Assembly: GCA_045837725.1 (NCBI GenBank)
Contig: JBEWZL010000011.1
Coordinates: 186,001-250,000 of the forward strand
Source of the DNA: Vermamoeba vermiformis
Taxonomy: Eukaryota
DNA: 64,000 nucleotides
Direction: 5' to 3'
The position numbers and the translations under genes are program-made. The notes beneath the pieces were generated by a model that saw only the letters and a program-made list of their open reading frames with translations, searched no databases and was not told the DNA's origin. Shown piece after piece: positions 5,418-29,768 of the stretch (position 1 is its first letter; each line of letters begins with the position of its first letter).

Positions 5418-5715
5418 AGAGCCGTTCATGATTTAAGCGCAGATTTAGCTGACAACTCATCGATCGGCTTCAAGCACTGTGGCCTCCGCTTGCGCATCTA
5501 CAACACGAATCAACAAAACCAACAGAAGTCCATTGTTCAAGAAATAGACCAAATTTGCTCGAGTTGTCCAAAATCGCCAGATCTTTCATGAACGTTCTTT
5601 GAACTACCCGAATATTTCAGGGCTGTCCTCACCCATACAAAAGGGCGTCAACAAACATTTCAGTCAATTAAATTCAACAATCAACATAACAAACACAACA
5701 TACCAACAAAGATCA

Positions 5716-5928
5716 ATGGATACTCAAACTCCTTATCGCGAACAAACTTGTGATGCATGCTCTGGCCGTGGCTACTTGGCTTGTGCAATGTGCTGTGGCT
5801 CTGGCACCGTAACTGAATTCGTTGGCGACGACGCAGAGATTAGATCGTGTCCATCGTGCCATGGGGCATCAGAGCACTGGCAGACGTGCAGCAAATGCAC
5901 TGGCAAAGGAAAAGTCGAGCTTGACTAA
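5716..5928 (+). CDS. Stand-alone DnaJ-type CxxCxGxG zinc-finger microprotein (70 aa)
   Basis: Four repeats: CDACSGRG, CAMCCGSG, CPSCHGAS, CSKCTGKG. Confidence 0.75.
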   Translation: MDTQTPYREQTCDACSGRGYLACAMCCGSGTVTEFVGDDAEIRSCPSCHGASEHWQTCSKCTGKGKVELD

Positions 5929-6339
5929 CTAAAATAATCCTGACATTGGTAATTTTCGATTTTTTGCTAATTTGGCATGGCCCGAGGATCTTTGTCAACA
6001 TCTCCTTCGGGCGAAAATCGAAATTTATCTTGCTTTGTACATAATAATTTTGTTAATAAATCTTTTGTATTATTTAGCGCATACCAGTCACTTTATGTTG
6101 AATCCGCAGAATTCAGAGAAACTTGAGAGCTCCAAAATTAGCATCACTTGCCCGTTACAAAATTTTTGTTCAGCATTTATAACCAATACACGCTCGTATA
6201 ATAGCACTGTTCCCTACATCTGGTTCAGGCCTGCCGTTCGTACGCACCTGTGGATACGACCGTTACGATTTCAGAAATAGTTGCAGTACAATAGCGCTGC
6301 TTTCGAATATTATTGTTTAGTAATTAGTACGAACACGAT

Positions 6340-7792: not shown

Positions 7793-8046
7793 TGGATGCA
7801 TTGCTCGTTGAATCCGCTCACAATTTCTTCGTTCAAAGCTGTTGAACGCCTACTTCTGTACACTAGTGATTTATTGATTAATATAAATAGAATTTGCGAT
7901 ACTCTTGCGTTACGTCCACGTGCACCGAGATTTCAATTTTATTTTTTGTGCAACGTCGTTATCGCAGTTTTCAATTAATAGATCATTGTGTCACTACGAA
8001 TGCCAACAGGCCGGTTATATTTTTGCAGCAGAAGGATTGAGCAACA

Positions 8047-9238
8047 ATGAGTACCGCAACAAACAAGACGTTTCCGAAAGTGATCGAGCTCAATGTTGGA
8101 GGACGGCACTTTAGCACTACAAAGAGCACACTATGTAAATATCCCGATTCAATGCTTGCTCGCATGTTTGAAGGTAACTTCGAGCTGGTTCAAGACGTAA
8201 GTTATCGCTGATCGACCAAAAAGAAATTAAATTTGCTTGATTTATACGTAAATGATTTAGAATTAATTCGCTATTACTATAACAAAACAACATGATTTTC
8301 AAGTTTTACTGTGGATTTGCTAAAAATAAAATAAATTATTTTCCGTTATTGATAAATCCTTAGAGTGCAGGTCGCTATTTCATAGATCGAGACGGAGAAC
8401 TATTTGGACATATTTTAAATTTCCTCAGAAACGATAGAATCTTGATCCCGGCATCAAAGCGAGATCTTGCCGAAGATTTACTTACTGAAGCAGATTTTTA
8501 CGGTATTGAGCCGCTAATTAATTACTTGAAAGAGGTAGTTGAGGAAATAGAGGCGGTAAGAATAAAATCTAGATCATTTTTCGTGATCTGACCTTTGCTT
8601 AATGAAGGAGCGCAACAGAATTTCCAATAGCAAAGTTTTTTACAACGAACTCAGACAAGCCTCGCTAAAGAAGTGGCAAGACTACGCTAATGTACGTTTA
8701 TTGCTCATATATTATTGCGATTGTTTTGACTTGATTAGTAGAACGTGTTCGACACGTGTTTTCCGGACATCAAAGAAAAGCTGATTAAAGCAGCCACCGA
8801 GAGTAATATTATGAACTGTCTTATTACTTTCCATCAAGGTACTGTCGGCTATTATGTTGTCTAGCGTTATTAATGTGCAATTCGTAGCTACAACCGATGA
8901 GAGCATCAACCAAGTGACTGTTGAGCGAAGTATCGGAAATTGTTGGAACAATCCTAATGTCGCTATTGGAGGCAGTATTAAGATTAATATTAAAGTCAGA
9001 TATGCACAGATTAGTATTCCCAATGGCTGTAAGTACCATGAATAACGCAACCAGTTCCAGATCTAAGATCCGCACGTTACCAGATTCGGCCATGCAAATG
9101 AACGCTGTCGCTGAGGTTTGGTGCGATAAATTAGAAAAATTAGGTTTTGAAGGAGTTAAATACAAAGCGCATCCGTTTGAAATTTACTTTAGGTGGAGCA
9201 AATACCTCACCGATAATTTTGTTCGTTTAATAAACTAG
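8047..9238 (+). CDS. KCTD-type BTB/POZ domain protein
   Basis: Spliced translation VIELNVGGRHFSTTKSTLCKYPDSMLARMF...YFIDRDGELFGHILNFLRN...EADFYGI. Confidence 0.85.
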
Positions 9239-9300
9239 GCTTTTCGATAATCGCATTCATTTTATTTACAAAATAAATAATATTAATATTCGTTGTTGAA

Positions 9301-12108
9301 CTACCTTTCGTTCAATGCCACTCCCGCAGTAGGTAAATTATTTACATCACTTTTTGGTGTAATGTCCCCTTGCGGGAAGTCATCCAGTTGCACTACGAAC
9401 TCGTCGTTGTATTTTTCATTATCGTAGTCAATAATCTCGTCCACTTTCTTCAAAAATCGTTCTGCGTATTGTTGTGGGGGTGTGACACTGATTCCTTTCT
9501 GTTACAAATAATTTTTGTCAGACATCGAAAATCGTAAGTACTGCAGTCACTTACCGAGTCTTGCAACACAATGTACACTTTGAAAAACCGTTCCAACTTC
9601 TTTTTGATGTTGTAAATGGTCAGCACGTCGATAATGCCAATAAAATACAGCTCTGTTTTGTCGTAACTCAGATACACGCCGTGTCTCTTCGTCCATTCAT
9701 CAATTTCTTCGGCCGTGGTGATATTGGGGTCGATTTTATGAATGCCCAATAATATGCTGTAGTCCATTGACTTGTGGAAGCACAAGAACTACATAGATTA
9801 GCCAGAATCAAGCTTGTCTTTTTGCGCTGGACTTACCGAGACGTCACGCTGCAGCACACCACGGATCTCCATTTTTTGATCTGGTGTCAAGTTCAGTTTT
9901 CGGTTGAAGTCCAAATCTTTCAACACGGACCTGAATATGCATTAGTAACGATAAGCATTGCCAGTGATTAACGTACGACTCTCTATTCGGCTTGTCCAGC
10001 TTAGTTCTTCGACCGACCCACGAGCCCTTCATGTCGTACCGTTCTTTCATTTTGAACTGTGGTGGGAACAAATTTTCCATGACGAGCACGTGCACGTTCT
10101 CCACATCGCCCACTTCTGACGACAATAGGCCGTAAAATCTTGTCAGCATTGAACGCGGTGTCGCTTGAAGGTGCTGTCGCAGAGCGTGAGCACAACGGAA
10201 TATTTAAATATGCACGTTTCGTACCTCGTAGTATTCGGGCAACATTTTGACCAGCGCATCGGCTTCCACTTGTGCTATGGTCTTAATAATGTACTTCTTG
10301 TCGGTCGTGAATAGCATAAAACTGTCGCTCTTTCCCTCGCTAAAACTCGACTCCAATGTTTGGTTCACCACACTCGCGTTAAATGAGTTCTAATAAGAGC
10401 GTTAGGTCTCTATTTCCTAATAAGGAAATGCCGTACCAAGTATTGTTCGGACGTCACGCCAGACAGAATTCTCAAGTTGTAAAACATGAGCGGCAAATAG
10501 TCGACGTTCTTGTACTGCAATAAGAGCGGTTGTTTGTCGCCTGAAGAATGGTTAGAATGAGCTACAAAAGAAGTTCCGTCGTGTTTAAAACATACCCGGA
10601 CGTTTGTATCCTTCGTGCAACATGCGCATGTCCTCGTCGTCCATGTCACTAGACAGACATTAACACGCTACAACAGACAGCGACATTCACAGTACTTACC
10701 CCGCATTGTCCAGCGTCATCGAGCCTTCTTGGACTCCATTGTGAGTGGCATTATTGGTACCGTTCTCGTTCACTAACTCGGACTGAATAAAGTGTTAGCG
10801 TGTAATATGGCCATGCGAATCGTGCGTTATTACCGTCTTTTGGATGCGCAGCATGATCTCTTGCAGAATTTTCTGTCGAATTCTCATCAACGTTTTCTTT
10901 TGTACGCCGTTCTCGCGCTTCAAATGCAGTTTGCCACAACAGCTCAAATTCTGCGACACGAAGGCGAAGCAAATAACGGCCTAAAGGTCGTTAGTGGTGA
11001 TAATTACAGTTACTGTTTATCAGTCTTACTTGAAACGAGTTGAACAACGCCAATGAAATGGTCGCGAGACGAAGGCTGGACGGTATAACACCGGCAATTC
11101 TGTGCGTTAGATCGTGTAAGACAACGGTCGTATTGTTGGGAATGCATCGTGCGTACCTGAACAAATCGATGGCGAAGGCGAACAAGGGCAAAATACCAGT
11201 GACGGCAAAGTTCAAGCACAACAGTCCGAAGAGATTGGTGATGGCATAGACCAGCAGTTGACGTCGCTTCAGGTACTTGACGGACACCGCAAATGCACCG
11301 AAGATGACGATGCACAGCGGCAGCACGTAGATGATCTTCATGAAGTGATTCGTCGTGCCCGAGAACCAGCACCTAGTGCACACAAAAATAGTTAATATTA
11401 ATAATGTCGCTATTATATTATAATATGACAAATATAGCTATCCATTCACTTACATGCCGTCGTAGTTTGAATGGCCGTATGAACCAGACCAAATCAAAAT
11501 TATTGCCGTTCCAAAAGATAATGACCAGGCCAATATATGATAATACTAACGTATTTATAATTAGATAACTCAATCTAAAAATAAGTCGCGCGCGTTACCT
11601 TTTCGTATTTTGATGTTTTATGGAAAGGCGTATTTAATAAATGCCAAACAGTCCAAATAATGCTGCCGCTCCAAACGATCGTATACGTGCCCCAAAATTG
11701 CGACCAGAACGCTATTAAATAACAAATTATTAATTAAATTAGTACGGTTGATTGATTGATCGGGATCTGTCACCGGAAATTTAAGAATATTTTGCTAATA
11801 TTACAACGAAAGAATACTATTAAAATTAATGATGACGCACCTTCAACGCCACATAATCCTCGCGACGATAATTCTAAGTTGTAGTTGGCCAAGTTGAACA
11901 GTCCAAAGTACTTCATTGAGAACAGCGCGTGTCCCGCCGAGTAATAAATGAGCAAGTTGAACGGGTGTCTGAAACCGACGGACCACCAAGTGACCAGGAT
12001 CGTGCTGAATGACAGCGGCAACGCGATCATGTACGAGATCAAAAACGTTGCACGAAAGCCCTGAGAAGAGAGCAAGTATATTAGATCATCTTCTATGGTC
12101 GAGTCCAT
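9301..12108 (-). CDS. Multi-pass GPCR-like membrane domain fused to a C-terminal phosphatidylinositol phosphate kinase (RpkA/GK-type architecture)
   Basis: Hydrophobic N-terminal exons (12108-11000); PIPK motifs SEGKSDSFMLFTTDKKYIIKT, LTRFYGL, YDMKGS, MDYSILLGIH, IGIIDVL, PPQQYAERF; TAG at 9301-9303. Confidence 0.85.
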
Positions 12109-12372
12109 TTTCAAATGGATGTAAGGCTGAAAATAAAAAGATGCAAGTAAAGATTAAATACCGAACGAAAATTCGGATTCGTGTTTTTCAAGAGAAGAAG
12201 ATTTAGTAAGCGTTAGTAAAAATACAAACTATAGCTAGTATATACTATAGCAATAAATAATCACGAAATTACTACGATTTCTACCCGTGCACAAAATCGC
12301 GGGAAGCACAAATTGGCGGTTTCAATTAATTAACATTAGTTTTATTTTCGGTAAGCTAATTTATTGTGCCTA

Positions 12373-12502
12373 CCGTAGTATATTATTGGAGATAGGGTAG
12401 CTACGATTGAGCATAGATTCGTGCGTGCTTACCGGTTCCAGCTCTGGTATCACGTCGGGTAGAAAAGAAATAGGCTGGTCTGTTTCCATAATATATTTAC
12501 GG
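12373..12502. mobile_element. Possible degenerate MITE
   Basis: Imperfect inverted ends (ta)CCGTAGTATATTATTGGA / TCCATAATATATTTACGG around ~130 bp of non-coding DNA. Confidence 0.3.
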
Positions 12503-13174
12503 TGACTGTATGTTTCGTTTTACTGCGAGATCGTGCGTTTTCAAAATCTGCAGATTACGGTGGCCGATCGCGTAATCTCCAGCGCCATACTTTCGAAAAA
12601 AATATACAAATAAATAGTTGTGGTGTTTCGGTGAAAGTTTAGCGAGCTGACAATTATTGTCGCTGTGAGTGTGTTTAGTGAGGAAAATCAAAGGAATAAT
12701 TTTTGCCCGTCAAAAATTTACGCTCGGCACGCTGTCGGAACCTTCTCTTGAACTTTTGTTGTGTTCGTTATTTTCTCTCTCTGTACGTTTAATTGTGGGG
12801 TTACTCATTGGTAGCATAAATTTCTCGGACCTACTTCCAAACTCGAATACACTGGATCTGCAGCTTGTTTTTGTGTGTTTTGCTCGTTTTTTCATTTGCT
12901 GCAGTTAGTTTGGAACTGGCTGAATTCATGTGCTGCTGCCAAGCTGAAGCCATGCTTGATGAGAAGCAGCTCTCTTCAAACAATTTATACCGCTGCTTAT
13001 TCAATGCAAACGGTTTCCAGTGAAAATAATAAATGGTCATTGTTACGTCGAAATATTGAAGTATCGAGTAAGTGAAATAATTTCAGCAATTCAATGACTA
13101 TTTAATACACTTAATTGTATAAGCGAAATAGTCGTGCTTCATATTATTTAATCAATTTGTTAAATTTAGGTGTA

Positions 13175-13770
13175 ATCTCCCAAGTCTCCACCTGCTCAAA
13201 CATTAACAACTGTTGGTCTGGCATGCATTTTTGCTTACCAGTGTAGTCACCAAAGGGAATAACAAGGCAGTAACCGTCTTTGTAGTCACCGCTGTCGATG
13301 TGGGCATGCCATCGATGTTGATCGCCATCACTTTGAACACCGTAGTTATAGCATTGGGATCTCCATTGACAGCGACATAGTCCCTGTACATTTGTGGGAA
13401 GTGATTCTTGACAAGGACGTCCACGGCATCAAGCAAACCAATCTCACGAAAGCTAGCCAACAGAGCTTCAATGCTGGGGACATTTTTATCTTTTGAGTGA
13501 GCTGTTGCAACGATATTCTTGCTTCCATGAGGAGACCACGCTCCAGCATGATATGACCAGGAGTTTATGCAGCCACGTCCATGCTTTCGTCATTTTCGCT
13601 ATAAGAACTTCAGCAAGGCCCCCCAAGCTCCTCGCCAAATCTTTTCAGGCACAGCCTGGGCAATGCTCTTTGCCAGTGTGTGGAATTGGCTCTTCATTCC
13701 CAGGCCGCAGCAGTTGTTTATCACCGGTGAACACTGTAAATTCATCTACTGGTTGTGTTATGACCCGTTC
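13175..13770 (-). pseudogene. TET/JBP-like 2OG-Fe(II) dioxygenase remnant
   Basis: Hand translation: RG...YHAGAW...FPQMY...VFKVMAINIDG / frameshift / HAHIDSGDYKDGYCLVIPFGDYT-intron-GGDL; in-frame TAG and TGA; cut at 13770 by the LTR element. Confidence 0.65.
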
Positions 13771-13841
13771 TGTGATAGTGTGAACGGTCGTTTATTTATA
13801 TAAAGTACACGAGATATACACGAGATATTTGTCTCATCACA
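13771..13841 (-). repeat. Candidate 3' LTR, 71 bp
   Basis: Starts immediately after the PPT; ends are inverted TGTGAT...ATCACA; contains AATAAA and a duplicated TACACGAGATA; the TET-like frame resumes right after it. Confidence 0.7.
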
Positions 13842-13853
13842 TTCCTCCCTTTC
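13842..13853 (-). promoter_or_regulatory. Polypurine tract
   Basis: GAAAGGGAGGAA on the minus strand, directly abutting the LTR TG. Confidence 0.8.
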
Positions 13854-14057
13854 AGACTCTTGACGGCCTCGGCAAGCGTTCTAAAATAGTCTTCTTCTCT
13901 TTGAATTGTGCTTCTCTTTGCCTTCATGACTGCGCTTCTTTTCACGTGAAATTTCTTGTTCGAAGATCTCGGCGAAGTTGGTAAGGCAAGTGCGTAAGAA
14001 TTCGAGCAACTCTTGATGTGATTTAATTGCATTAATTTGTTCTTTGAAACGTTTAAT

Positions 14058-17000
14058 TCACTTGTTGCTTGCAATATTATCGCCGGAGAGAGTCTGTTTT
14101 AATTCTTTCTTGATAGGCGCGAGAGGGGAGGAAGGATTATCGCGGTTTGCTAAATACAAACGTTTTAACGCATTGAATATAATCATACCGTATTTAGGTG
14201 TCTTCCATTCTGGCTCTACGTATGGCTCTGTTTGATCTGTCGTACTGACAGTCGGATTCGCAGCGATATTAGATTGATTATTATTATTATCACTAACGTT
14301 AGTATTGTTATTATTTGTATTATCATTAAAATCGTCTACTATTTCAGTGTCATCAACGGGTGTTTTGTCTTCAATTTGCTTCGTGTTAAATGACGCTTTT
14401 GTATAATCAAAATTGTCGTTTTTATGAACGGAAATAAATTCGGTAGGTGGTGTAACTGACGTGCATAATTTCAAACGATCAACGTTAATATAATGGTCGA
14501 GAATTTCTCCGTCTGGATTTGCAATTACGTATGTGAGCGGAGATCTTCGCGCGACAACGGTATAAGGACCTGACCAGGGTAAAGAGAATTTAGGAATTTG
14601 ACCTGGCACGCTTCGCGGCAGCCAATAAAACCAAACACGGTCGCCAATTTTAAATTGTGAGTCGCGACGATATTCATTATAATATTCTTTCATTCTATTT
14701 TGAGTCGCAACGATATTTTCGGTAATATATTTACGAGCAATATCTCTACCTTTAATAATTTCATCTAACACTTCATTATTGTTTAAATTTTCGTTTAAAT
14801 CTGGTGCGTCAGGAAAAATTCGGTCTATAATTTGATCAGAGTCATACCCGTATAAAGCAAAGAAAGGACTATAACCAATAGTTGGATGTTTTGCTTTGCG
14901 GTACGCGTTTTGAACGTATTTTAAATAAATATCCCACTCGCCTTGATTATCGTGGACGTATACTGATAAAAGCGTCGCGAGCGTATGATTAAATCTTTCA
15001 ACAAGTCCGTCTGTTTGTGGGTGATAAGTTGTTGTAAATGACGGTTTTGTTTTAAAATATTGTAAGATCTCTTCGCGAAATTTGTTTCTAAAACTCGATC
15101 CGCGATCCGAAAGAACTCTAAGCGGTGGATTATGCTCAATAACAACGTAATCTATATACGCTTTAGCTACTGATTTCGCACTAATGTCCTTTAACGGGAC
15201 ACAAATTGGAAATCGCGTTAAATAATCGCAAAATACGATAATATATCTATAACCACGTTTAGTTAACGGCAACGGACCAAGAATATCCATGCCGATCAAT
15301 TCCCACGGTTTTGAGACCTTAATTGGTTTTAAATAACCCGCTTTATAAACGCGAGGAGTCTTTCGTGCAATGCATTTAACACACGAGCGTTTAAATTTCT
15401 CTGGAATAGCGAGACATAATTTCGCGTGTGAAGGATTATGATCTTGATATTTTAATTTATATAATAGTCCGTTTTGCATATATAGATCCGAGCATTTACG
15501 TAAAAATTCAATCCCCGATCTGTGTGGTACGCAATCGCGTTCAAAGTAATCTATATATAATTTTAATTTAGGATCGTTTAATTGTTCTTGTCTGAATTTA
15601 TCCGGATTCGACGCAAAATTAAATTCGAGAGTAGATTCGATTGTCATCGAATTAATTGTGAAATTTGGAAGTCTAGATAGAGAATCTGCATTACCGTTTT
15701 TACGACCAGGTTTAGCACGAACTGTGAAGTTGTAATCCGCGAGAGCCATTTTCCAACGAGCAACCTTGCCGTTCATCGCTCTGAATGAGTCCATAAATTC
15801 GAGAGATTTATGATCTGTCTCTATTATAAAAGGTTGACCGTATAAATAAGATCTAAAATGTTTTATAGCTTCGACAGCTGCGAGGCATTCCCGTTCAGTC
15901 GCCGACGATTTAGCTTCACTATCCGTTAATTTGCGCGACCAATACGCAACAGGGTGGTCTTTGCCTTTCTCATCACATTGTGAGAGTACGGCACCGATTC
16001 CAAAAGCGGATGCGTCGACTTGAAGAATAAACGGTTTGTTAAAATCAGGATAATGCATAATTGGTTGACTTATTAAGCACGTTTTTAATCTATTGAATGC
16101 TGCAGAGCATTCTGTAGTCCATTCGAAAGTATTATTTTTCTTTAATAAATCCGTTAATGGGCGAGCTTTCTGCGCGAAATTACGAACGAATCTACGATAA
16201 TAATTACAAATACCCAAAAATGAGCGCACTTGAGTGACACTTTCTTTAATGCGGTCTTCATGCCAACTCGAAATTGCTCTAATTTTATCCGGGTCTGGTT
16301 TAATTCCTTTTTCGCTAATAATATGCCCGAGATAATTTGTTTCATAATAAGCGAATCTACATTTTGACGGTTTAACTTTTAGATTTGATCCACGGAGGCG
16401 ATCGAATACTTCGCGTAATCTACTCATGTGCTCGTCGAAAGTGCGCGAGAAAACTAATATATCATCTATGTAGACAAGACACGTTTTCCAATTTAATCCT
16501 GCTAGTGTCACGTTCATTAATCTTTGAAAAGTAGCAGGTGCGTTAGTCAAACCAAATGGCATGACGTTAAATTCGTATAAACCCGAATGTGTTGTAAAAG
16601 CAGTCTTTTCTTTGTCTTCTTCGCGAATTGGAATTTGATAATATCCAGAAATTAGATCTAACGTTGTAAAATATTTCATGTGCGACAAATGATTCAACGC
16701 GTCATCGATCCTCGGAAGAGGATATACATCCTTCTTTGTTACAGCATTTAATTTACGATAGTCAATGCAAAAACGTTTTGTTCCGTCTTTCTTTTTCACT
16801 AATAAGACAGGCGACGACCACGGAGAACTAGATGGTCGTATTTGTTGATTGTCTAACATGCGTTGGACAAATTCATCTATTTCTTTACGCTCTGACGGCG
16901 ATAATTTAGAGAATGGTCTAGACCTAACAGGGCCGTCTGTAACTTGAATTTCGTGTTTTACTTTATCCGTTGTAGTTTTTAATTCAGACGAGAATACGTC

Positions 17001-18010
17001 TTCGAATTCTTTAATGAATTCTTTTAGTGCCTCGATTTCGTTGCGACTTAATTTCGGATTAATTTGAGGGGACTGTGACGCAGGAAGGGAGACACGATCC
17101 TGTTGATGTACTTTTTCCATCGCGAGGATAACCTTAGTCCTTTCCGCATTCCCACGGAACATTGGATTCGAGAGACTTTGCGATGTTACGGGAGGGGTAT
17201 TAGCGGACGCATCATCATCTGAATCCGTTGTTCTAGTCCTATTCGTTCTATTCTCTGCCGAATTGTCGTCTAGAATAATTTCAAAACCATATTGATCTAG
17301 ACATACACTAAAGTTTCGCGTGGCTCGCGCTACTAGACTACTGTGCAAAACTAAAGTGTTTCGGTTCTCAGAGTTAGTCACGAACACATCGACAGTGTTG
17401 TTCGGACGTACAACCCCCATCTGTCTTCCAACAACTGCGCGATGCCGAGAATCAGACATCTCGATCAACAAATTGTCACCTACTTTCAAGTTGTTCTCCT
17501 TACTAAATTTACATCGAATAATAATTCCTGAGTGACTTGGCACTTTAATCGTACTACATGAATAGAGCGCAATTTCAAATTCTTTATCATTACTACAATC
17601 AATCATATTAATCTCGTTTGCTGTCCACGCAACTTTGTTCGCAATCATTAACTCAGCTTTAGCGGTAGTGAGCGTGTCCATTCCAAGTAATAAATCGAAT
17701 CTGAAATTCTCGATATATAATGCTGTAACAGGGATCGATACGTCATTGATCTCAATATTAAATTGTGCGTATTTGTTCGCATATATAATCTCAGAGTTTG
17801 CAACTCGTAATGTATATTGTCTCGTGTTGTATAATATGATATTGGGATACTTATTAATGAAATTGTTATTGATAACAGAGACTGATGCTCCAGTATCAAT
17901 TAATGCTTGAATATTAGTGTTATATAATTTGACCGTTACGAAAGGTAATTTCGTGGACTGAATTAAATTAACGAGCAGCTCAGAGTCCACGTCTAACTGC
18001 TCTGATTGCC
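14058..18010 (-). CDS. pol: Pol polyprotein (aspartic protease, RT, RNase H, integrase)
   Basis: LIDTGAS; RFCIDYRKLN; YIDD; QVDAS; integrase MDILG, SDRG, LVERFN; GPY module. Frame is open back to the slippery site. Confidence 0.95.
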
Positions 18011-18017
18011 ATTTCCC
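17952..18017 (-). promoter_or_regulatory. -1 programmed ribosomal frameshift signal (slippery heptamer + H-type pseudoknot)
   Basis: G GGA AAT at 18017-18011, 8-nt spacer, stem GAGCAG/CTGCTC, loop CGTGGAC complementary to downstream GTCCACG; pol is in the -1 frame. Confidence 0.85.
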
Positions 18018-19216
18018 TGCCTCTTTCCATTGTTGTTTTGTTGTTGATTTGGGTTACCGGTAAAGTTCGGCATCATGTTATTATTATACGTTTGGTTTGG
18101 ATTGCCGTTAAAGTTAGGATTCATGTTTGGTAACGCGTAAAATGGTTGAAACGGAAGGGCTTGAGGAAGTACGAAAGGGAGGTATTGATTTTGATTTTGA
18201 GGCATTTGTTGTTGTTGATTATTGTTATTGTTATATCGACGACGATTGAAAGAACCTCGTTGGTTACCACGGTTATCATTGTATTGTTGTGAATAATTTG
18301 GTTTCCCACGTTGAGGAAACGGTCTACCTCGGTTGGGGTTACCTCGAAAATTTGGCTTACCACGAGTAGAAATGAAATTTACGTCATCAATTGGATTGTT
18401 ATTATTTTGAGTAGTCTCGGTATCATTTACCTGAGTTACAGCATTCACAGTTCCAGTCGCGTTCGTTTTCGCAGCTTTCGGTTTGATGATAATACTCCAT
18501 GGCAAGTTGACCATTGCGCTTGAGAGTCGCGAGTAATCTGTCATCATCGAGACCATGTTCGTACGTACGTGCGTGCTCACGTGTTCTGGGAGGGCATCAA
18601 GCAAATACTTGATCTTGTCGGGATCTGACGATGGGTACGATGCAAAATGAGAGTTGAAGCGAGTGTAGAACTGATTAAAAGTCTCTTTTTCAGGGTCCCA
18701 TCTCTCGTTCGATATTTCGCTTTGCTTGACCATGTTGCTTTCAGGAGCGATGTAGTTTGTCGCAAGCCATTTAGCAGCTGATACCATGTCTTGTTTGAAC
18801 TCTTGTGATGCTCCATTCCATGCTTTCAAAGGGCCACCAGCCAATTTACGACCAAATATGAGCAACTGTTCCTTCGCTGATAACTTGTGAAATTGGACAA
18901 GGCTGTAGAACGATTCCAACCATGTGGTGCTATCCTTTTGTTTAACCATATCGAACGGTTTGCAATTGGTGTCTGCGATAGCGTCCTTCAATCGACGATT
19001 GCCAGCCAATTTATCGTTGAGCGTTTTGACTTCGGTTTTAAGTTGGTTGTTTTCGCTTTGGATGCGAGTAATATCGTTTCTTAATTGAGCATTTTCTTGA
19101 CGTACCAATTGGTGTAAATTATACAAGTCCATGTATTGTTTTCGATAATCTTCCAGATTTGATGCAGATGCGGGAGTACTTTCGCTGGCAATATCAATTT
19201 CTTCGTCTTCAGATAT
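17993..19216 (-). CDS. gag: Gag (N-terminus lost at the DNA-transposon junction)
   Basis: Coiled coil, retrotransposon capsid-like core (WLESF...LAGGPLKAW...ETFNQFYTRF), N/Q/R-rich tail ending QGNGNQSS*. Confidence 0.85.
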   Translation of the reverse strand: MSEDEEIDIASESTPASASNLEDYRKQYMDLYNLHQLVRQENAQLRNDITRIQSENNQLKTEVKTLNDKLAGNRRLKDAIADTNCKPFDMVKQKDSTTWLESFYSLVQFHKLSAKEQLLIFGRKLAGGPLKAWNGASQEFKQDMVSAAKWLATNYIAPESNMVKQSEISNERWDPEKETFNQFYTRFNSHFASYPSSDPDKIKYLLDALPEHVSTHVRTNMVSMMTDYSRLSSAMVNLPWSIIIKPKAAKTNATGTVNAVTQVNDTETTQNNNNPIDDVNFISTRGKPNFRGNPNRGRPFPQRGKPNYSQQYNDNRGNQRGSFNRRRYNNNNNQQQQMPQNQNQYLPFVLPQALPFQPFYALPNMNPNFNGNPNQTYNNNMMPNFTGNPNQQQNNNGKRQGNGNQSS

Positions 19217-19240
19217 GGCAAGGTCCGCGAGTCTCAGTCC
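19217..19240 (+). repeat. Left TIR
   Basis: GGCAAGGTCCGCGAGTCTCAGTCC preceded by ATAT (19213-19216). Confidence 0.9.
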
Positions 19241-19313
19241 AAATGATCGGAGAAATTGCATTTGGCAAATTGAATTTTTCATACCGTTTATTATAATTTG
19301 TAGTATGACATAA

Positions 19314-21368
19314 TTAAATATTTTGTTCTTCAAACTCTTCTACCAAATCATCACATTGCAAGTCTGATTCGGGAATCCACGAGTTAAATGAGTTGTCGTA
19401 ACCAGCCCATTTTACTTCGTACTGAACTTGGTTCTTAACTTTTCGTTTGCCAACAATGCATTCCACTTCAAATTCTTCACCTTCAGATCTTTCATCTTCG
19501 GTGGGAGCACTTGTTCCTTTTGGATGGTTGACTCCCACCACAGTTGTATGTCTTTCAATCCATTCTCCAACAGTATTCTGATTTGTGCACTTGTCAAATT
19601 GAAACTTTAAGCAGTGAGTACAGACGCAAGGCCATCTACGCATGTAAAGCTTGTTTGGTTGTCTTGAAAACACAAAGTCATAGCATGATTTAATGCCAGA
19701 AACAGTTGAAACATCTTCTTCAGTATCATTGTATTGAATATTTAGGACAGTTGAAGAACCTCCTTCAATTGTTGACCAATAAGCTGCTAAATCTTCTGGG
19801 GTGTCAATAAATCCATCTTCTTTCAGAACATGAATACGGGCTTTCTTTTTCAACAGTGCACCACGTCCATCACACTCTCCTTTTCCATGGTAAGCAGGGT
19901 CGATAATCCAGCGTAAATGAAGACCAAGAGTTGAGAAAACCTTGGTTCCCCAGTGCATTGAGCGACGATTCTTGAAGTGTTGCATTCCTCCATCAGTTAG
20001 TAGAATGCAGTGGCAAACATCATTGCCTAAATCTAACAGTGGAAGAAGTGCAGTAAATGCCTTTTGGAATACCACAGATGTGTGGTATAGGTAAGGTGAA
20101 ACAAACGCGTGGTACTTTTTGATGATGTCTGGCTGTTCTCTGGTACTTAATGCACTGTGGTACCAAATGGTTGCAATCAGGACAGTAGTTTGTCGCCTTC
20201 CATAAAATGCATTGCCAACTTCAATTGAACTAATGTGAGAGTAGTTCATTAGAAAGTCCCAGCGCATCATGACTGTATCCATTGGAAGCTGTGCTTTCAA
20301 TGTTTTGATTGTTGACTTCTGCCATTCAACATGAAGCTTGTGGTCTTTTGCTTTGGAGGTAGCCTCTTTGTAGCCCTGAAGGAATTGTTGCCTTGTACTG
20401 TTGTGCGAAACATGTACCATCTGATTGGGTGCATACTTGTCTCGATCATTAAGAAGTGCTTTTGAAGGAATAGGAACTATCCAGTTCTCAGCAGCTTGAG
20501 ATTGAAATTCAACTGGACAGTCATCAACAGAACAGGTGCAATCAGGTGTGCAGTCAGCACCATGATTACAAGCAGAACAGTAGAGACACAGGCACTGACA
20601 TCTATCATGCCACTGACGTCGTTTCTGCTGGAGCATCTTTGTCCAATGATGAGCAGAGGAGCAGGTTGGGCACAAACCAGAGTAGTAACGTTGCAAGTAA
20701 ACACACTTTGGAACTAAGGAGTAAAAGGTAGAACAGCCAACTCCATTTGGGCAATCAGTCTATTGACAATGTTAGTAAAAGTAGAAAATGGACGCGCGGC
20801 GCGTTGACGGAATGGGTACCTTGTACTGCTGAAAAAGTTCACCAATTGAGGAGTCACGATAATGCATAACTTGGAAGCCCCAAGAACCATTTGCTTCACG
20901 TTGGCGAACAACATTGGATGAATTGGCAGAGGCACGGCAGTGATCCAAAATCCAGTTTGTAACAAGAGAGGGTTCGACTGGGAGCCTGCTAGCTTTGTAT
21001 TGGGTCTTTGTAACAAACTTGTTGTGTTTGCCGGTTAATAAACTGTCACGAAGCTTTTCACGGGCATCCAATAGAGCTCTGGTAATGCTGCGTGTTGAAA
21101 TGCCAAGAACTTCTGCCTGAGCTTTGTCTGTTTCGTCTGACAACATGGTGCCCAAACTGCCACGAAAGAAGCCAGAAACTCGTTCTGATTTGGCGGCAAC
21201 GCGAAGAGCTTGTGAGTAATTGGAAAGCAAATTATGCTTTGTCGAAGAGCAACTGAGGACGTGCAAATGTGGTGCAATTCGTTGGTGCTTGAATACTTGA
21301 AGGAGCTCTGGTTCAATGCGCTCTGGCGGAATTTGAGAGAAAGTAGCAAGGAGTAGGTGTTGGTACAT
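19314..21368 (-). CDS. Sola2-like DDD transposase with Cys-rich region and C-terminal chromodomain
   Basis: Exons 21368-20820 and 20759-19314 (60-bp intron with TACTAAC); motifs WDFLMNY, LTDGGMQHFKN, YHGKGECDGRG; chromodomain EFEVECIVGKR...YEVKWAGYDNSFNSWIPESDL. An additional 5' exon is possible. Confidence 0.82.
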
Positions 21369-23670
21369 CTGTGTTATTGTTCGTGAAGGAGTACTTGAAA
21401 TAAATTAGTAAAGGGAGAGTGAACGCGCCGCGCGTTCATAGTTTTTATTAATTTTATTATGAAAAAAAAAATAAAAAGCAGTTGTTCTTTCATTATTTTC
21501 AATTTTTCAAACAGTGCACCACAAATGAAAAAATCTACTCCTACACCAGAGTCGAGCAAGGCTTTGCTCGATAAATGGCTCACAAACGAAGGCAATCCTA
21601 CTTCAGTCCCGTTGGCTCAAATGACTGTGCGAGGTAAAGAAAAATATTAATTTTAAAAATCACAAACGCGCTGCGCTTTCACGCCAAAGAGCTGATTATT
21701 ATTCACAAGTGTTGTAGTATTTTTAAGCAATATTGTTACCTTTTTTTGAACGCGCAGCGCGTCGATAAAAAATGCATAATTTTTGGACGCGCGGCGCGTT
21801 CATTGTTGTTCTCACTGCTCTAATAATTTTCAATAGGAACATACCGCACTGTTACTGAAGAAGGAAAAGCCACGATTAAGAACAACATTATTGCGCAAGG
21901 AGCTGGCGACTTCATGAATGGTTTAAATCGTACGGAGCCATTTCTTGTTCAACTGCTGCCGCCCGACGAAAAAACGAAGAAGAAAAGCAAGCAACCCGAG
22001 TACCGAATTCTTGGCGGCAACCATCGATACGAGATATTCAAGGAAATGTAAGTTAATAATGGTGTTGGTTTTTCACACAATACTAAAACAGCAATAGGGG
22101 TGTTACGGAATGGCCTTGCTACATTCTTGCTGCTACGGTTGACGATGTAAAAATGACAGAGTCGGAGACTGAGCAATTGGCTGGCATGGACAACGGCAAA
22201 TCCCAGTACGGAATCGCAAAGGCTGGCTGGTTTGAATAGTTCGAGAAGCTAAACCGCTATCTGCAATTTCCCGGCATCGTCGTCACTAAGGGAAAACGGA
22301 CAACTACGAACTGGGAGGCAATCTATGCGCTGTCTGGTAATCACGAAGGGCTATCCGTCAACACCGCGAAAAAGCTAGCAACTGCACGCACAAACACGGT
22401 GCAGGCAACTCAGGAGAAGAAGTTCGAAAAAAACCCTTTGTTCATTCGCATGCAAGCCCTACACGCCAAGTACGGGTACAATCTGCCAATCAAAATGAAG
22501 ATGTTCACCGAAGAGAAGAGGTTTTGGCAAATGGACACGTTTCAACAGGTGGAGGCAGTAAATCTGTTCATTGAATGCATCGAACAGAACAAGTGCAAAG
22601 GAACTGGAACTGGTAAGTCATTCAAAAATGTCTTTCTTTATGAACGCGCCGCGCGTCAACAAAAACTTTCTTTGTTTGAACAAAAAATTGTACTTTTTTC
22701 TGAACGCGCGGCGCGTTGACAACACTACATTGTTTATGAACGCGCGGCGCGTCGATAAAACTTAGCTTTTTATGAATAAAAAATTGGGAATTTTTCTGAA
22801 CGCGCGGCGCGTCGACAAATATTTGAATTTTTTGTACGAAAATTGCCTATCTTTATGAACGCGCCGCGCGTTGACAAAAACACTTTGTTTTTTTATAACA
22901 ATTCTCATTCACTTGTAGATTGGAGTTCAATGATTGACAGTGTTCTCCGACGTGCTAAAATCGTCGATTATATTGGCAAAGCACAACCTCAGGCTGATTT
23001 GCTTGAGGAGTATACTGAAGCTGTTGGTCGTGGCGAGTTTCCTTGGTTGGAAGAAGCGTGCACGGATGCACTAGATAACGCAGCAATGCAGCACCTTTTG
23101 AAATGCCTTGAGAAGGGCACCGCTGCTAAATCTGTAAAAGCACCTGTTCCTGTGTTAGATGGGCCGGTACGAATACGTTCACTCATACAACTTTACATTC
23201 TAACTTTTTTCACAGAAATCACCCTCTGCCAAGAAACCGCAGTCTTCCAAGAAGGACGAGCTTCTCAAGGAGAGAATCGATGCACATATCGATTCAGAAA
23301 ATGTTGAAGCCAGACCACCAGAAGAAGTTGATGCAAGCCAAAGTGAAGCTGAACCTGACGATCTTGCTGATAAGAGACCTTCGCGGCAAAAACATACAAC
23401 TAAGGCTGCTGACGAAAACACGGAGGCCGCAGAAGCCACTGTGGACAAGCCTGTTAAGGAGAAGAATTCTGCGGAGGCAGCTGGTGACAAGCCTGCTAAA
23501 GGCAAAGATGCAGCACAGGCTACTGGTGACAAATCTGCTGCTAATAAGCCTGCTAAAGGCAAGAATGCACAGGCAGCTGTCACTGATCAAGAACCAAGCG
23601 AAAAAGGATCTCCCAAGAATACACCTAAGAAAGGTGATTCCCCTCCTGTAAGCGTGAACGCGCCGCGCGT
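20792..23670. repeat. Dispersed palindrome ACGCGC-N-GCGCGT, 11 copies
   Basis: Cores start at 20792, 21423, 21666 (degenerate), 21750, 21787, 22644, 22704, 22740, 22800, 22859, 23658; all intronic or intergenic. Confidence 0.92.
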
Positions 23671-24729
23671 TTTGCCCTACGTATCTAATTTAATGTTTTA
23701 GGATGCCACACTGTGGAAAGTTTCTGCCACAGAGCAACTTACCACTCATTTCAATGCTCATTACAATGTTGTTCCTGAATTTGGCTTGCAGCTTCCAATT
23801 GTGACGAAGGCTGACTTGGTCTTTTATAACTGCACTGGAAGAATTTCTAACGCACATTGGAATGCAATGATGAAGTCCGTCCTCGAAAATGGCAGGGTTG
23901 TGATTATTGCTGAGCCAGCAGACTCCCCAACTATTTTCACTGGTCTTTCCGCCAAGGAAAATACTTTGGAGTTCGACTTCAAGTACACTGGCGTGATGTC
24001 ATATCCTCCTTCGCGGGTCCTTCAAAAAGACCGCCCTGCAGCAACTTGCTGGGACTTCTACTTTCTCAAGGTGAAAGGTGGCCAGCCACACTTTAATGAT
24101 GAAGATTTGGATGGGGCACGCCACAGAAGTCAATACTGGTCTCATGGTACCTTCAAAGCACCAACACAGGAAGAGCACTTGCACGCAAGAGCTTCCACTG
24201 CTGCACCTCCTATGTATCCAAGGCAGCCTCCAATTGAAATGTTTGAGTTTGTTATTCGGGTAAGTTTCTTTTTTTCACCACCTTTCCTTTGCTGACTAAT
24301 TGATAGGCCTTTGCTCCGCCTGCCCCTTTTGTCATTGTTTTCAACGAGTGCTCGGCAGCATCTTACATTGCCTGCGTCAATATGACAGCCACCTACCTTG
24401 GTTTCATGCTTACTGACAACAAGGAGGTTGCATGCCAACATGTTTCAAGGTTCATTTCCTCACGCTTGTCCAGCCAAGAAGATGCCACAGCCCTTCAAAA
24501 CACTTTGTTTGAGATTGTTACAAACAAAGTGCAAGAAGGTGATGAAGATGATGAGCCACTGGGACTGCCTGACACTCCTGCTAAGATGGCTGTGGATGAG
24601 GATTTGCCTGAGACCCCTTATGTGCCTGGCATCATGGATGAAACCCCAGCAGCTTCAAAGAAGCGCAAACGTGATGAACCTTCGTCACCTACAAACTTCA
24701 CCAAGAAGTCCAAATCTAATGCCAAGTAG
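21525..24729 (+). pseudogene. ParB/Srx-like N-terminal domain + low-complexity linker + degenerate DNA methyltransferase-like domain; one premature TAG
   Basis: Six exons; YRILGGNHRYEIF, EWPCYIL, EQLAGMDN; C-terminal ADLVFYN...VLENGRVVII...YPRQPPIEMFEFVIRAFAPPAPFVIVF...YLGF; TAG at 22237-22239 with the frame open on both sides. Confidence 0.65.
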
Positions 24730-24930
24730 GGCATTTGACTTGTAAAACTTTTTGCCTGTAGCAGGTTTTGTTTTACAATAAATATATCTTTTTCATACAA
24801 AATATTCTATTTCGTAAACTTTGTTTTTGCTCAAGTACGCTCTGTTTGTTTTTAACATACTATTTATTTAATTTAGTTGTATGAATTATTACAGTTTCGG
24901 AACATTTCTTCGAAAAATTGAATTTCTTCA

Positions 24931-24954
24931 GGACTGAGACTCGTGGACCTTGCC
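24931..24954 (-). repeat. Right TIR
   Basis: GGACTGAGACTCGTGGACCTTGCC followed by ATAT (24955-24958). Confidence 0.9.
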
Positions 24955-25302
24955 ATATTTTAATTTTTTTTGCACTTTGCCGAATCCTTTCCAAAATCAA
25001 TTTTTAAGCTTGTAACAGCATATTTACATGTATTAAAGCTATTATTTTATTATTCTGATCATCTTTTTCTACCAAAGCCTGTCATCAGCATTGTCATCAG
25101 CCCTCTCATCAGTTTTTGTCATCGGCACCCAAATTTTCGCAAAATTATTTCGGATTTACCTTGACTTTCTCATTGTTTTTGATCATTTGGGCATAATTAG
25201 CCTCCTCTGAAGTATATTTGGGCAAATTTTGAGACGCGCTGCCCTCGGCCTAGCGGCCTCGGACAGCGCCGAAGATCCCATTGTATAATCAATCACTAAT
25301 TA

Positions 25303-28300
25303 AAGCAAGTTGTATAGTGCAGCATTGGTGAAACAACTGGGAACCTTGACATTTTGCAACATCCATTGGCAAACGGGCTGTCCAATTGACTTGGAAATCA
25401 CCTGTCCGCCGTTTAGTGCTGGTAGTGCCATAGCTGGAGTGTAGTAAGTCTAGCTAATATATTTTACAATGTAAAATTTTGCTTACCAGCCTTCAGCTTT
25501 AATTCACGCCCATACTCGCCAGAACACACTGCACAGCTGGTGTTATCAATGAAGACTAAGCTTGCCTCAAAGATTTGTCTTCATGCCACATTAGTGAAAG
25601 CTACAGATGGTTCCCTTCAGTTTGGAATAACCGAAGGTCAGCATCGCCTTTCCACTCTTGCAACTCTCTATGCTAGCCACCCCCAAATTGCCAATTCCAC
25701 CTTGATTCTGCTTCAAGTTTGTCGAACAAAAGAGGTATATACATATCAATAGCATCCTTCTTATCCACCTGTGTTTATTAATTCATCACAGGACATCTTA
25801 GAGCTAACAAGCCAGCAAGGTGAAGCAGACTCAAATGCTTTAAGGGTGACTTGGGTGGATTCAGTATTCAATATTTGTCGGTTATTGCAAACCAACCCCA
25901 ATACTCACAACTGGACAACTACAGACTTCAGAGTTGCATTGGGAGCACCTTTTGAGAAGCAACAGGCCTACTGTAAGTGAAATGCATTCGGTTCACCAAC
26001 TATTTACTAACTGGAACAGTTAAATACTTGAAGATTGCAAAAGGCCTTGGAGAAGAAGCTTTCAGATATATTTTTAATTGTGTTCGAAAGCGTGCAATAG
26101 CCGAAATGAAGGGGTTACCAACAGAAGAGCCTTCATTCTCGTATAGCAAGCTAGAAACCCTCATCAAGCATTCACATGACACTCAGCTTAAATTAGTGCT
26201 TCAGAGTGAGTAGAATTGCTAATTACTATAATTACAGCTCTGTGATAACTGGTGCACTATTCAATACTGACTCTGACAGGAAATAATTTTGAACAAATTG
26301 GCCTATGGGAGAAACACGTTGCTGAAACACTCAAATCTGCCAAACAACACGAAAAACATGTGACAGTGTTCAAACAAGAAGTTGAGAGCTTAATGAAGGA
26401 GACAGATATCCAAAAACAATTAATACTCGAAATGGGTCTGCAATGGCTGACTGGTCCCAGTTTTAGTTCAGCTGAGCTTGATGACAAAGATATAACACGC
26501 AGGTTAAGTGTCATCAAGCAGATTGGCCAAATATTGAAGTTCACCGAGCATTCTGACTTCAGTGCAACAGACTTTCTACTGATTGACATCTGCTCTGGAG
26601 CTATTGATGATGAGGACCTTAGTAAACACATGAACAGAGCTGCTAGACTCGGTTGCTGGGGACTTTGTAAGCAGTGATTATTTATAACGACATGGTGCTA
26701 ACAAATGCAATAGGGATGCAAACAAAGGGCTTTGAGTTACCTAAGCTGGATGGTCTTATTCTTGTTCCTTTGTGCATTCTAGAAAACACTTTGTTTTCAC
26801 TATTTGCACCTCCAACAATAACAACAAGCTGTATCTTGAGCGTATTTGCTGCCCTCATGTACAAAGTAAGCTAATTCTATCTGCAAATCATTCTAACTGT
26901 TGCTTAGTTGACAGCTTCTGAGAGTTCTTTCAAAACAGCTGATCATGAAAGATTTATATTTAATGCAGCATTGGCATCATATATTTACTTCACAAAGCAA
27001 GGTACAGGTTTCTTTTTTTGCAATCACTGACTAATCACCTGTTCAGAATCAATTTGCGTATGGGATCTGTTTCCGGTCTCTTACCCAAGCTTGACTCGCT
27101 TCCGAACTGCCTACCAGGCGAATATCCAGTATAATGCACTTTGGAAATCCTCTGAACTTCAAATTGCTTTTGCCGCAAGCATTCAGGATGGATTCTCAAC
27201 ATTAGGGCCTCCACCTAAACGGTCCTTAGAAGTGCTGACTGCTGATGAGGTTAACAGGCTGGTAACAACAGTGCCTGCAGAGTCTGCTTTGCCAGAATCA
27301 GTTACTTCAGGAATTCCTCTGCACTACACCCAACCAACGAAGATAAAGTTACAACTAAAGCACAAATATGCACTCATGAATATTGAACATCAACTGCTCC
27401 CATATTTGAAGGATTTCAGCAAAGCAGACGCCATCTTTTCAGGGTTGCTTGAAAAGAGAAGCTTTAAACATAGTGTAGATGCAAGCAGCACACACCTTTA
27501 TTTTTTACCATACATCACCCTTGGTATGAATAGAATAATTACATGCCACTGTTACTCACCGTACAATTAAGAGCGCCAAAATATTGAAAGGAAGCTGCAA
27601 CATCATCTCGAATTGGCCTCCAAGTCATTATTTGAATGCACTCCGGAGGATTTTAAACTTTCGAACTGTTTGCTTAGAAATTTTCAGCACTGCCACAAAT
27701 GGGACAACATGTATATTTATCATGAAACAGTCTTTGGATCTTTGGGCTTTCATTTCGACTCCTTGGTAAGTTAAGTAAGGTTATGGAGCTAAGTATTAAC
27801 AAATTTCAAGGGTACTCCTGCAGTAAATATCTTGTTAGGACCTCCAGGATCAATGAAAATCTGGTACTTCATTGATGCAACACCTGAGAACTTGACTCGC
27901 TTTAGAAAATGTAAGTAGTATTTATCTTCTACTCTTTTCTAATGTTGGTCTGCATTCAGTGTGCGTACGGTCTTCTTCAAAAATTCAGGACATATGGATT
28001 ACACCTGAAACCCTAACCAAGAACGGAGTGACATTTCGTGTAGTGCATCAACAATGTGGAGACATGCTGATTGTTCCACCACTGCAATGGCATTGTGCTG
28101 TCTCAGCCCCCAATATCCCGGTAATTGTATTCATTAAACAAAAAAAAATAACTTACCACAGCACTAGGTTTCTCCAATTACTACAGGCATTGCATATACA
28201 ATCCTCCCCCTTCCTTGCTTACAACAAGCCATTGAGTTATACTTCAATTACACTACAACTCCAATCCCTTTGGAAATCATTTTGGGAGAGATGATTAACA

Positions 28301-29768
28301 AATCGTTCTTCAGCTCTTTATCACTTGAATATCAAAAAAGTTTAAAAGTTCAACTCACAAGAATAGTCAACAAATTCTCAAGCCTCAAAGATGCAAAGTT
28401 CAATACCCCACCATCGAGTAGACAATGTACAATCTGTGGTCGAGACCTTCCTTACTTCTTTGCAACGTGCAAGAAACTAGCTCTAAAATGCGACACAAGC
28501 AAGAAGCTGTTTTGCTGCTTTGTATGCTACCATCTTGATGTTTTTTCATCGTGTGGTCATGGGTTCACGTTATACAGATGTCACTATTCTGATACAATTT
28601 ACGAGCAACTAGAAAGGTATGTGTGTCCCAATATCAATCTCTATAATAATTTAATTTAGACTTATCGTGCAATTACACCCTGTAACTGAAGAAGGACAGT
28701 TATCATCAAATGACAATTCAGTTCTACCCAATGAAGCTGAGGCATTACAACATTCCATCATTGTACAAAACTCAGAGCTTGAAATCAATGAAACAAATGA
28801 ATTGCATCAATCTGTTTTCCCACAACTCGTTGCTGAAAATGAGGAACAAACTTCAAACACACTTGGCACTGTAAATGACCAATTCAAAAAGGTACAATTA
28901 ACTTACATAAAAATATCACTACTAATCATAATACAAGTACTGTCTCCACATTCTACAATGGACAAAGAGTTTATCTCCAGAATATTATCAGCTATTAGAT
29001 CTAGAACACCCTGTCATGCATCACTATGGAAACTTGGAGGCGTACTTGGTGTCAAACTTCAAATTACTCAGTGTTGGTTACAACAGTGCATCAACAGATA
29101 GCATTAAGCTTGACCAAACATACAAAACAATCACACAGCAGTTTTTTTCGTATGTTTACAAAAACAATAATGTATCATTTTAACATATCTAGCAGTGATA
29201 AGCCTTCAGATATTTTGCTGAAGAAGATGCAAATCATTAACGACACCTACTTCAAGGTGAAAAACCCTCATCAATACTTTGAGAACATTGAACTATTCGC
29301 CCAAAAGTTTAATTCCAGCTTTTTTGGATCACCAATGGATAATCAGGCCTTACACATTGATAGTGCCTGCTTTTTAGCAACAAAAAAAGCATTTGGACGA
29401 CTCAACAACACCCAAAAACAATATTTCATTCAACAGTAAGTACTTCTGGACTTGAAGTCAAAATTTCCTCTAATTGTTTATTTAGAGCTGCCCCAATGTT
29501 TGCTATGAGAGCAAAAAGTCTTGCACCACACCTGATTTTTATTCATGCAGCTCTTAATGTAGCTAACGTGCTATTGCCTTCCACCACCTTTGAAGAATTC
29601 ATGGTGTTTACCAAGAAGAAGAACACATACACTGTTTTTCATGCTGCTTGGGAAGGAGCTCAAGTTTTTGTGTTGCCACCAATGCAAAATTCCTTTGGGG
29701 GCCTTTCTTCTGCTGATGTCATTAGCTTAGCAGACAAATGTCTATCAGACTTCTTTAAAGATATTTAA
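25303..29768 (+). CDS. Large multi-exon ParB-like + JmjC (KDM4/5/6-like) + Cys/His zinc-finger protein, 5' end apparently missing
   Basis: NSRPYSPEHTAQLVLSM...ITEGQHRL; JmjC YIYHETVFGSLGFHFDSLGTPAVNILLG..MKIWYFI...HQQCGDMLIVPPLQWHCAVS; then CTICGRD...CKK...CCFVCYH...CGH. Confidence 0.72.

Follow-up and report, generated by a model that had tools for sequence, protein, structure and literature searches.

For the TET-carrying DNA transposons of fungi, Kojima (2025) cites Iyer et al. (2014). Fungal TET+ DNA transposons are distributed over 11 carrier lineages (Kojima 2025, PMC12730594). In Chlamydomonas, CMD1-like TETs were described on a cut-and-paste transposon, on Helitrons and on a punuivirus, with 10 of the 11 TET genes being transposon cargo for which a role against 5mC was proposed (bioRxiv 10.64898/2026.10.09.758095). 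NgTet1 and TET2 bind Fe(II) and 2-oxoglutarate, flip the methylated base and oxidise its methyl group (PMC11804724). Residue H297 of NgTet1 contacts the 5mC. 5mC was reported on the transposons of Acanthamoeba and Naegleria (PMC12344493, PMC12695648), and Naegleria, although it has NgTet1, gave no sign of 5hmC (PMC12344493). The available part of bioRxiv 10.64898/2026.05.21.726589 adds nothing on TET.

The window is a stretch of 64,000 nucleotides (C11:186001-250000) of a 43-Mb eukaryotic assembly in 309 contigs. Its minus strand holds, from 13755 to 13178, a broken copy of a TET/JBP gene that is truncated at both the 5' and the 3' end, as aligned with the intact paralogs L002 (C11:769k) and L003 (C110), which served as references for the lesion calls (Table 1). 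A hidden TET/JBP-like pseudogene had been proposed for this place in an earlier note, and it is real: all of the motifs named there are present on the minus strand, and the copy is recovered by paralog alignment and by profile. The remnant is 75% identical to an intact paralog at the nucleotide level over 516 bp (E 7e-100), 87% identical in amino acids to its closest intact paralog, L002, over 97 residues, and matches a profile of 10 paralogs from outside the window's clade with an E value of 4e-19; the resemblance is therefore not due to chance. On the minus strand the His codon of YHAGAW is at 13550-13548, FKVMAINIDG ends at 13308, and HxDxxD is followed by GYCLVIPFGDYT. The last of the frame joins made in the earlier note, the step from GDYT to GGDL, is a GT-AG intron shared with the intact paralogs and not a frameshift. 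Besides this intron, the earlier note had missed the 5' cut at 13756 and the absence of all sequence downstream of GGDL. When compared with the iron and 2-oxoglutarate residues of a working enzyme, HxD is there but out of frame, and the distal His and the Arg are gone; no match to the part of exon 2 with these two residues was found in C11:176001-250000, nor near the remnant in the genome search. The copy in the window is a dead pseudogene, and it would be dead even if single indels were assembly errors, because both truncations would kill the gene. Its designation as a TET/JBP pseudogene is held with very high confidence.

Table 1. Positions of the TET/JBP remnant, its lesions and the neighbouring elements in the window
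Feature	Position	Strand	Remarks
TET/JBP exon 1 remnant	13239..13755	-	first ~33 codons absent; contains YHAGAW, MAINIDG, HxDxxD, CLVIPFG
Frameshift 1	13689..13690 (about 13689)	-	2-nt deletion relative to intact paralogs
In-frame TAG	13599..13601	-	codon GAG in L002, CAG in L003
In-frame TGA	13590..13592	-	AGA in L002 and L003
Frameshift 2	13305..13306	-	7-nt deletion directly 5' of HxD motif
HxDxxD	13285..13302	-	H 13302-13300, D 13296-13294, D 13287-13285; Fe-binding His and Asp, and Asp aligned to NgTet1 D234
Phase-1 intron (GT-AG), predicted	13192..13238	-	47 nt; same position in L002, L003, L005 and metagenome contigs L121/L122
Exon 2 start codons (GGDL)	13178..13191	-	no homology beyond about 13178; codons for 2OG-binding Arg and distal His gone
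3' LTR of Ty3/gypsy	13756..13841	-	86 bp, TG..CA; abuts TET 5' break; polypurine tract 13842-13853
Ty3/gypsy body	13842..19216	-	pol 14058-18053 (protease, RT, RNase H, integrase); gag cut at 19216
Nested DNA transposon	19217..24957		TIRs, ATAT on both sides; DDE-like chromodomain-fused transposase (-) and ParB-like/methyltransferase-like gene (+)
Third multicopy element, end piece	24955..25287		333 bp
ParB-like, JmjC and zinc-finger gene	25426..28656	+	spliced; head-to-head with TET remnant, three inserts discounted

The family comprises 23 loci with the remnant included, as the union of three genome searches; this count is a lower bound, and some pairs may be alleles. The intact family that the earlier note expected elsewhere in the genome was found in the form of the 22 further loci, mostly with whole active sites. 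L002 and L003 may be alleles of one fixed locus because both lie in blocks (9 kb and 8.7 kb) shared at 94-97.5%; these blocks include host-like genes, and dN/dS is about 0.2 on few changes. Matches to Tet_JBP occur in none of 14 control genomes. Of 11 single paralog pieces, 9 have Tet_JBP as their best-scoring Pfam family, and in 2 the generic family 2OG-FeII_Oxy_3 scores above it. Two other pieces, L018 and L013, are over the 2OG-FeII_Oxy_3 cut-off and below the Tet_JBP cut-off (34.9 bits), which is passed by the clade relative P0009 (44.1) and by paralog L023 (41.3). In an alignment of 102 rows (94 database proteins and 8 genome pieces), 92 rows are matched by Tet_JBP and 18 by 2OG-FeII_Oxy_3. 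The profile of this alignment places NgTet1 (1e-15), CcTet (3e-14) and human TET2 (0.03) at the head of the PDB matches, with PKHD hydroxylase at 0.037, prolyl hydroxylases at 0.16 or above, and no AlkB among the 20 chains listed. A prolyl hydroxylase or AlkB as best match had been named in advance as the result that would speak against TET/JBP; at the level of the family, P4H/PKHD chains stand at E values of at least 0.037 against 1e-15 for NgTet1. A profile of only the genome's own copies gives NgTet1 at 2e-6, CcTet at 1e-4 and other oxygenases at 0.4 or above; a search of 1.84 billion proteins with it gave 3266 at E ≤ 0.001. A narrow profile built from 10 rows of the window's clade, and weak over exon 2, found no TET structure, and neither the remnant piece 13206-13589 (without HxD) nor exon 1 of L002 matched a Pfam family alone. 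The membership of the remnant in TET/JBP follows from its links by amino acid identity to L002 and by E value to the paralog profile.

In a quick tree of 77 rows the remnant joins L002 (SH-aLRT 100) within a clade that includes L004, L005 and four database proteins (99); the tree gives no placement among known clades because it holds no NgTet1, CcTet or JBP rows. Tet_JBP clusters came first for L030 in the Atlas, and one of the top three clusters is 88% viral. The search of the whole database with exon 1 of L002 returned solely a near-identical protein. No relative of the family was found in two scans of viral contigs, and none in metagenomes with L005 alone as the query. With the clade alignment the metagenomes yielded three loci, two of them 3-kb contigs (L121/L122) with the same gene and intron and too short for neighbours, the third an 18-residue match. 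Raw reads from three RNA runs labelled as this species gave, on C11:766000-775999, no real coverage of the TET gene, the JmjC-like gene or the host-like genes beside them, and those that mapped were poly-A artefacts at one spot; the stretch contains no positive control, and the reads are uninformative on expression or splicing.

Fourteen non-redundant paralogs were rebuilt by script with predicted gene starts and splicing, L009 (5' broken) being left out. Thirteen of the 14 have the full set of HxDxxD, distal His and Arg, and L004 is without exon 2. Each position of the HxD...H triad and the 2OG-binding Arg is kept in 96-99 of the 102 rows, and the equivalent of NgTet1 D234 in 15 of 15 rows, the window copy included. 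The position of NgTet1 H297 is occupied in the 13 whole paralogs by H (5), D (7) or K (1, L002); L005, P0009 and L121 have His. An F/H pair at +6 and +8 after the Arg occurs in many members.

Over 171 codons the remnant and L002 differ with a pN of 0.10 and a pS of 0.77. From the low pN together with the saturated pS it follows that the remnant was long a separate gene under selection, and thus is an old paralog that died late. It contains 18 CpG, where shuffled sequences lead one to expect 30 (p 0.001), a level reached by only 7 of 167 host tiles, and L002 shows no depletion (37 against 34 expected). CpG transitions between the remnant and L002 are in slight excess (12/60 at CpG against 23/190 elsewhere); RIP-like mutation was dropped as an explanation with an excess this weak. 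The derivation of the two stops from CAG and CGA by C-to-T change, as put forward in the earlier note, is compatible with the data and unproven, given the paralog codons at the two positions (Table 1). The true ancestral codons are hidden by the synonymous saturation; CGA to TGA stays plausible because the remnant is CpG-depleted. The CpG observed/expected ratio is 0.38 in the ParB-JmjC gene, 0.53 in the chromodomain transposase, 0.47 in the C260 block (see below) and 0.65-0.71 in the DUF7869-TET elements, against about 1.1 in host DNA. No depletion was seen in the Ty3 pol that adjoins the remnant (1.70) or in the two measured RAG1-like/TET loci (0.93 and 1.18).

The remnant is surrounded by nested inserts. 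Pieces of the Ty3/gypsy element are found on C77 and C182 (97-98% identical). The LTR of this family is very short, with further LTRs at C182:55366-55452 and C139:4040-4127, and its pol is CpG-rich against CpG-poor neighbouring DNA elements. The TET gene as cargo of Ty3/gypsy is ruled out, as it lies outside the 3' LTR and the flank at the same end of the C77 copy is unrelated. Cargo of the chromodomain transposon is likewise ruled out, as the TET gene lies outside the TIRs, no TET is found inside the 19217-24957 element, and none occurs in 6 loci with related copies. The labels DDE, ParB and methyltransferase for the genes of this element are putative and follow from motif resemblance. The element has CG-rich repeat arrays at 21420-22900, its relatives at C233, C188, C270 and C53 retain both genes, and it is possible that it constitutes a second transposon with epigenetic cargo. 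The 333-bp repeat was considered as the end of a TET element and rejected, being the end of another element. C72:10575-20000 matches the window from 3535 to 12982 at 95% identity, as an allele or a duplication; C72 is without the TET remnant and runs on into other transposon remnants. The window also holds a DDE_1 remnant of the pogo type (29896-30156) and a short multicopy element (30226-30449).

The JmjC domain of the gene facing the remnant is supported by E values of 8e-4 for the window copy and 2e-4 for the copy on C260. Its ParB-like N-terminus is a weak match (PHROG ParB, E 0.0027 for the C260 copy; Atlas ParB_N at 11% of one cluster, DUF6551), and Pfam gave no ParB match for the gene. 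In the genome search (43 Mb) the C-terminal part occurs in two copies only, in the window and at C260:24.5k. The two genes align exon by exon, and both face a TET gene of the window's clade head-to-head, the partner on C260 being L005. These two loci suggest, by their gene order, that the window's TET clade may have moved together with a JmjC partner. Downstream of L002, at 1 kb, is a JmjC-like gene other than this one, seen at motif level only (E 0.11), and upstream of L002 lies a CXC tail; no ParB-like gene was recognised adjoining L002. C260:5500-35300 (L075, L076, L045) is an AT-rich and CpG-poor block of about 27-30 kb with unannotated genes, containing the TET gene L005, the ParB-JmjC gene, a second JmjC-like ORF (14273-14806) and a 668-aa ORF. 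Weak relatives of the latter lie near TETs at C209:636k and C302; outside this genome, the JmjC C-terminus and the 668-aa ORF as queries returned no relatives.

A match to a DDE transposase is found no more than 5 kb away from 10 of the 23 TET loci, compared with about 0.4 expected; the estimate is crude, since the transposase counts are lower bounds, and the enrichment is inflated because TE-rich regions cluster. The transposases near TETs are of the DUF7869, RAG1-like and piggyBac types. C56, C121 and C292 hold bounded 5.3-kb elements, each consisting of a TET gene and a DUF7869 transposase. The element at C56:337504-342785 is 97.8% identical to that of C121, with breakpoints at 26-bp TIRs, and C292 has a related element with 27-bp TIRs. 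TIRs are thus present in all three, and a 4-bp TSD was found at C56 and C292 and none at C121. At C152/C301 a DUF7869 gene is located 4.7 kb from the TET gene. DUF7869 matches adjoin a TET gene in 5 of 32 cases, and most elements of these types are without TET. RAG1-like transposases adjoin TET genes at C77, C294, C140 and C30, i.e. at 4 of the 7 RAG1-like loci found. On C30 the TET gene and the RAG1-like transposase are flanked by 9-bp TIRs without a TSD, and C227 holds a deleted copy of this unit. On C215 a TET gene and a 510-aa piggyBac-type transposase (DDE_Tnp_1_7) lie between repeats that are inverted and only subterminal. Long open RAG1-like ORFs (507-590 aa) are present at L055:7454-8974, L066:142-1911 and L088:476-2173; RAG1-like ORFs in a probable amoebozoan bear on the evolution of RAG and Transib. 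Two multicopy TET-bearing units, C73/C289/C137 and C124/C257, have sharp shared ends at TA-rich flanks. Neither has a transposase within 5 kb, and repeats of C124/C257 recur in the C215 element of piggyBac type. Around the members of the window's clade (L002, L003, L004, L005 and the window, where the locus is scrambled by nested inserts) neither a transposase nor a TIR was found, and the carrier of this clade is for that reason putative.

The host genome has DNA_methylase matches at four places. By their motifs these four genes appear to resemble DNMT1, a chromodomain-bearing DNMT, DNMT2 and DNMT3. At C11:561-562k (L050, L052) lies a cytosine methyltransferase gene with chromodomain-like stretches, presumably similar to enzymes of the CMT type. 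Two MT-A70 genes were found, with motifs apparently like those of AMT1 in one and of AMT6/7 in the other. The 18S rRNA gene (L119:1501-3810, 2310 nt) appears similar to that of a Vermamoeba-like, free-living amoebozoan and is apparently lengthened by an insertion resembling a group I intron.

The preferred reading, at a probability of roughly 0.6, is that the stretch in the window is a dead, truncated gene of the 23-locus TET/JBP family, whose members are in many cases located inside or next to DNA transposons, and that the intact members likely oxidise 5mC on DNA, by which they would help the elements escape silencing by host methylation. The chemistry expected of intact members is that of NgTet1 and TET2, with Fe(II) and 2-oxoglutarate bound, the methylated base flipped and its methyl group oxidised; the probable substrate is 5mC, and live copies are predicted to lift in this way the host silencing of the elements that carry them. 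The window copy may once have shared an element with the neighbouring ParB-like/JmjC gene; nested insertions and deletions would then have killed it, and decay under methylation would have followed. Three observations favour oxidation of 5mC and a role against silencing: the host has methyltransferases, CpG has been lost, and transposons unrelated to each other have captured TET genes repeatedly. Against the 5mC reading stand the Lys of L002 and the Asp of 7 of the 13 whole paralogs at the H297 position, the CpG-rich Ty3 pol, the RAG1-like/TET loci without depletion, and the failure to detect 5hmC in Naegleria (PMC12344493). A bolder proposal, made tentatively and rather doubtful, is that the window's clade rides large mobile elements as a two-layer anti-silencing cassette, in which a DNA-base oxidase faces the ParB-like/JmjC/zinc-finger gene; the product of the latter would strip histone methylation or, as in phages, activate the oxidase via its ParB-like domain. 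Should the JmjC link hold, the unit would be mobile and would target marks on DNA as well as on histones.

It is unlikely that the window's clade is instead a hmU-making thymine hydroxylase, JBP-like or phage-like, perhaps with the ParB-like domain encoded opposite it as its activator. The Asp of HxDxxD is common to NgTet1 and JBP1, NgTet1 oxidises T about 32-fold more weakly (PMC11804724), phage T-dioxygenases require a ParB-like partner (PMC13229309) of the sort suggested by the N-terminus of the facing gene, and L002 has Lys at the H297 position; however, His is kept there in L005, P0009 and L121, and the ParB match is weak, with none by Pfam and no ParB-like gene recognised by L002. That the intact members are mainly 6mA demethylases is very unlikely. 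CcTet, the second-best structure match, acts on 6mA (PMC12730594), and the genome has its two MT-A70 genes, but in amoebae and other protists 6mA is on expressed genes and 5mC on transposons, so that removal of 6mA would be of no obvious help to a transposon (PMC12695648).

A third proposal, quite unlikely as well, regards the window's clade as an immobile TET domesticated by the host, and the window copy as an ordinary dead duplicate in a transposon graveyard. The L002/L003 blocks with host-like genes, possibly allelic and with a low dN/dS on few changes, the absence of CpG depletion in L002 and the lack of any transposase or TIR found around the clade agree with this. It is opposed by four non-allelic members with unrelated flanks and TE-like neighbours (JmjC-like genes, the CXC tail, nested elements and shared CG-rich repeats) and by the AT-rich, CpG-poor stretch on C260. 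An origin of the family from giant-virus or Polinton-like insertions, rather than as transposon cargo, is highly improbable: two scans of viral contigs gave no relative, no viral hallmark family was present among 127 flanking ORFs scanned in Pfam, and the genes have spliceosomal introns, several of them lying inside DDE elements. Such an origin would fit the Tet-like genes common in Polinton-like viruses (bioRxiv 10.64898/2026.06.19.733378), the TET of an integrated giant virus (bioRxiv 10.64898/2026.10.09.758095), the single mostly viral cluster among the top three of the Atlas, and the run of about 27 kb of unannotated genes on C260.

The pseudogene itself is inert and serves as a signpost to a TET/JBP expansion in a probable amoebozoan, on three transposase types including the RAG1-like one. 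The strategy by which transposons carry their own demethylase would thus extend past fungi and green algae. The family offers about a dozen divergent small TET enzymes with H, D or K as base-reading residue, which are assayable, and the host is culturable. As judged from titles and the starts of abstracts in a limited set of journals, the literature searched contains no paper that describes TET+ transposons in an amoebozoan or TET and JmjC together as cargo.

NgTet1 of Naegleria gruberi (PDB 4lt5, 5cg8; Pfam PF12851) is the best structure match, over about 250 profile positions, and shares with the family the small stand-alone catalytic domain, HxDxxD, the distal His and the Arg, and often the F/H pair; the family is distant from it in sequence, has introns and has Lys (L002) or Asp (7 of 13) at the H297 position, and the window copy is dead. 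The ParB-dependent phage T-dioxygenases (PMC13229309) resemble the locus in that a TET/JBP enzyme adjoins a ParB-like domain, whereas here a spliced eukaryotic gene joins that domain to JmjC and a zinc finger, and the putative link is seen at two loci. Chlamydomonas is alike in its non-fungal TET cargo, for which the appendices of the source may list more carriers; its host group and carriers are other ones, and CMD1 is not among the PDB matches listed for the family here. With the fungal TET+ transposons the genome shares an expanded TET/JBP family on several unrelated DDE lineages in one genome with cytosine methyltransferases. The host here is probably not a fungus, given the DNMT3-like gene and the apparently amoebozoan 18S gene. 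The available text of PMC12730594 mentions no JmjC partner and does not name DUF7869/Sola, Transib/RAG1-like or piggyBac among the 11 fungal carriers, and its supplements may list more. The principle of transposons carrying TET is already known from fungi and Chlamydomonas; what is new is the group to which the host belongs, the types of carrier and the possible link to JmjC.
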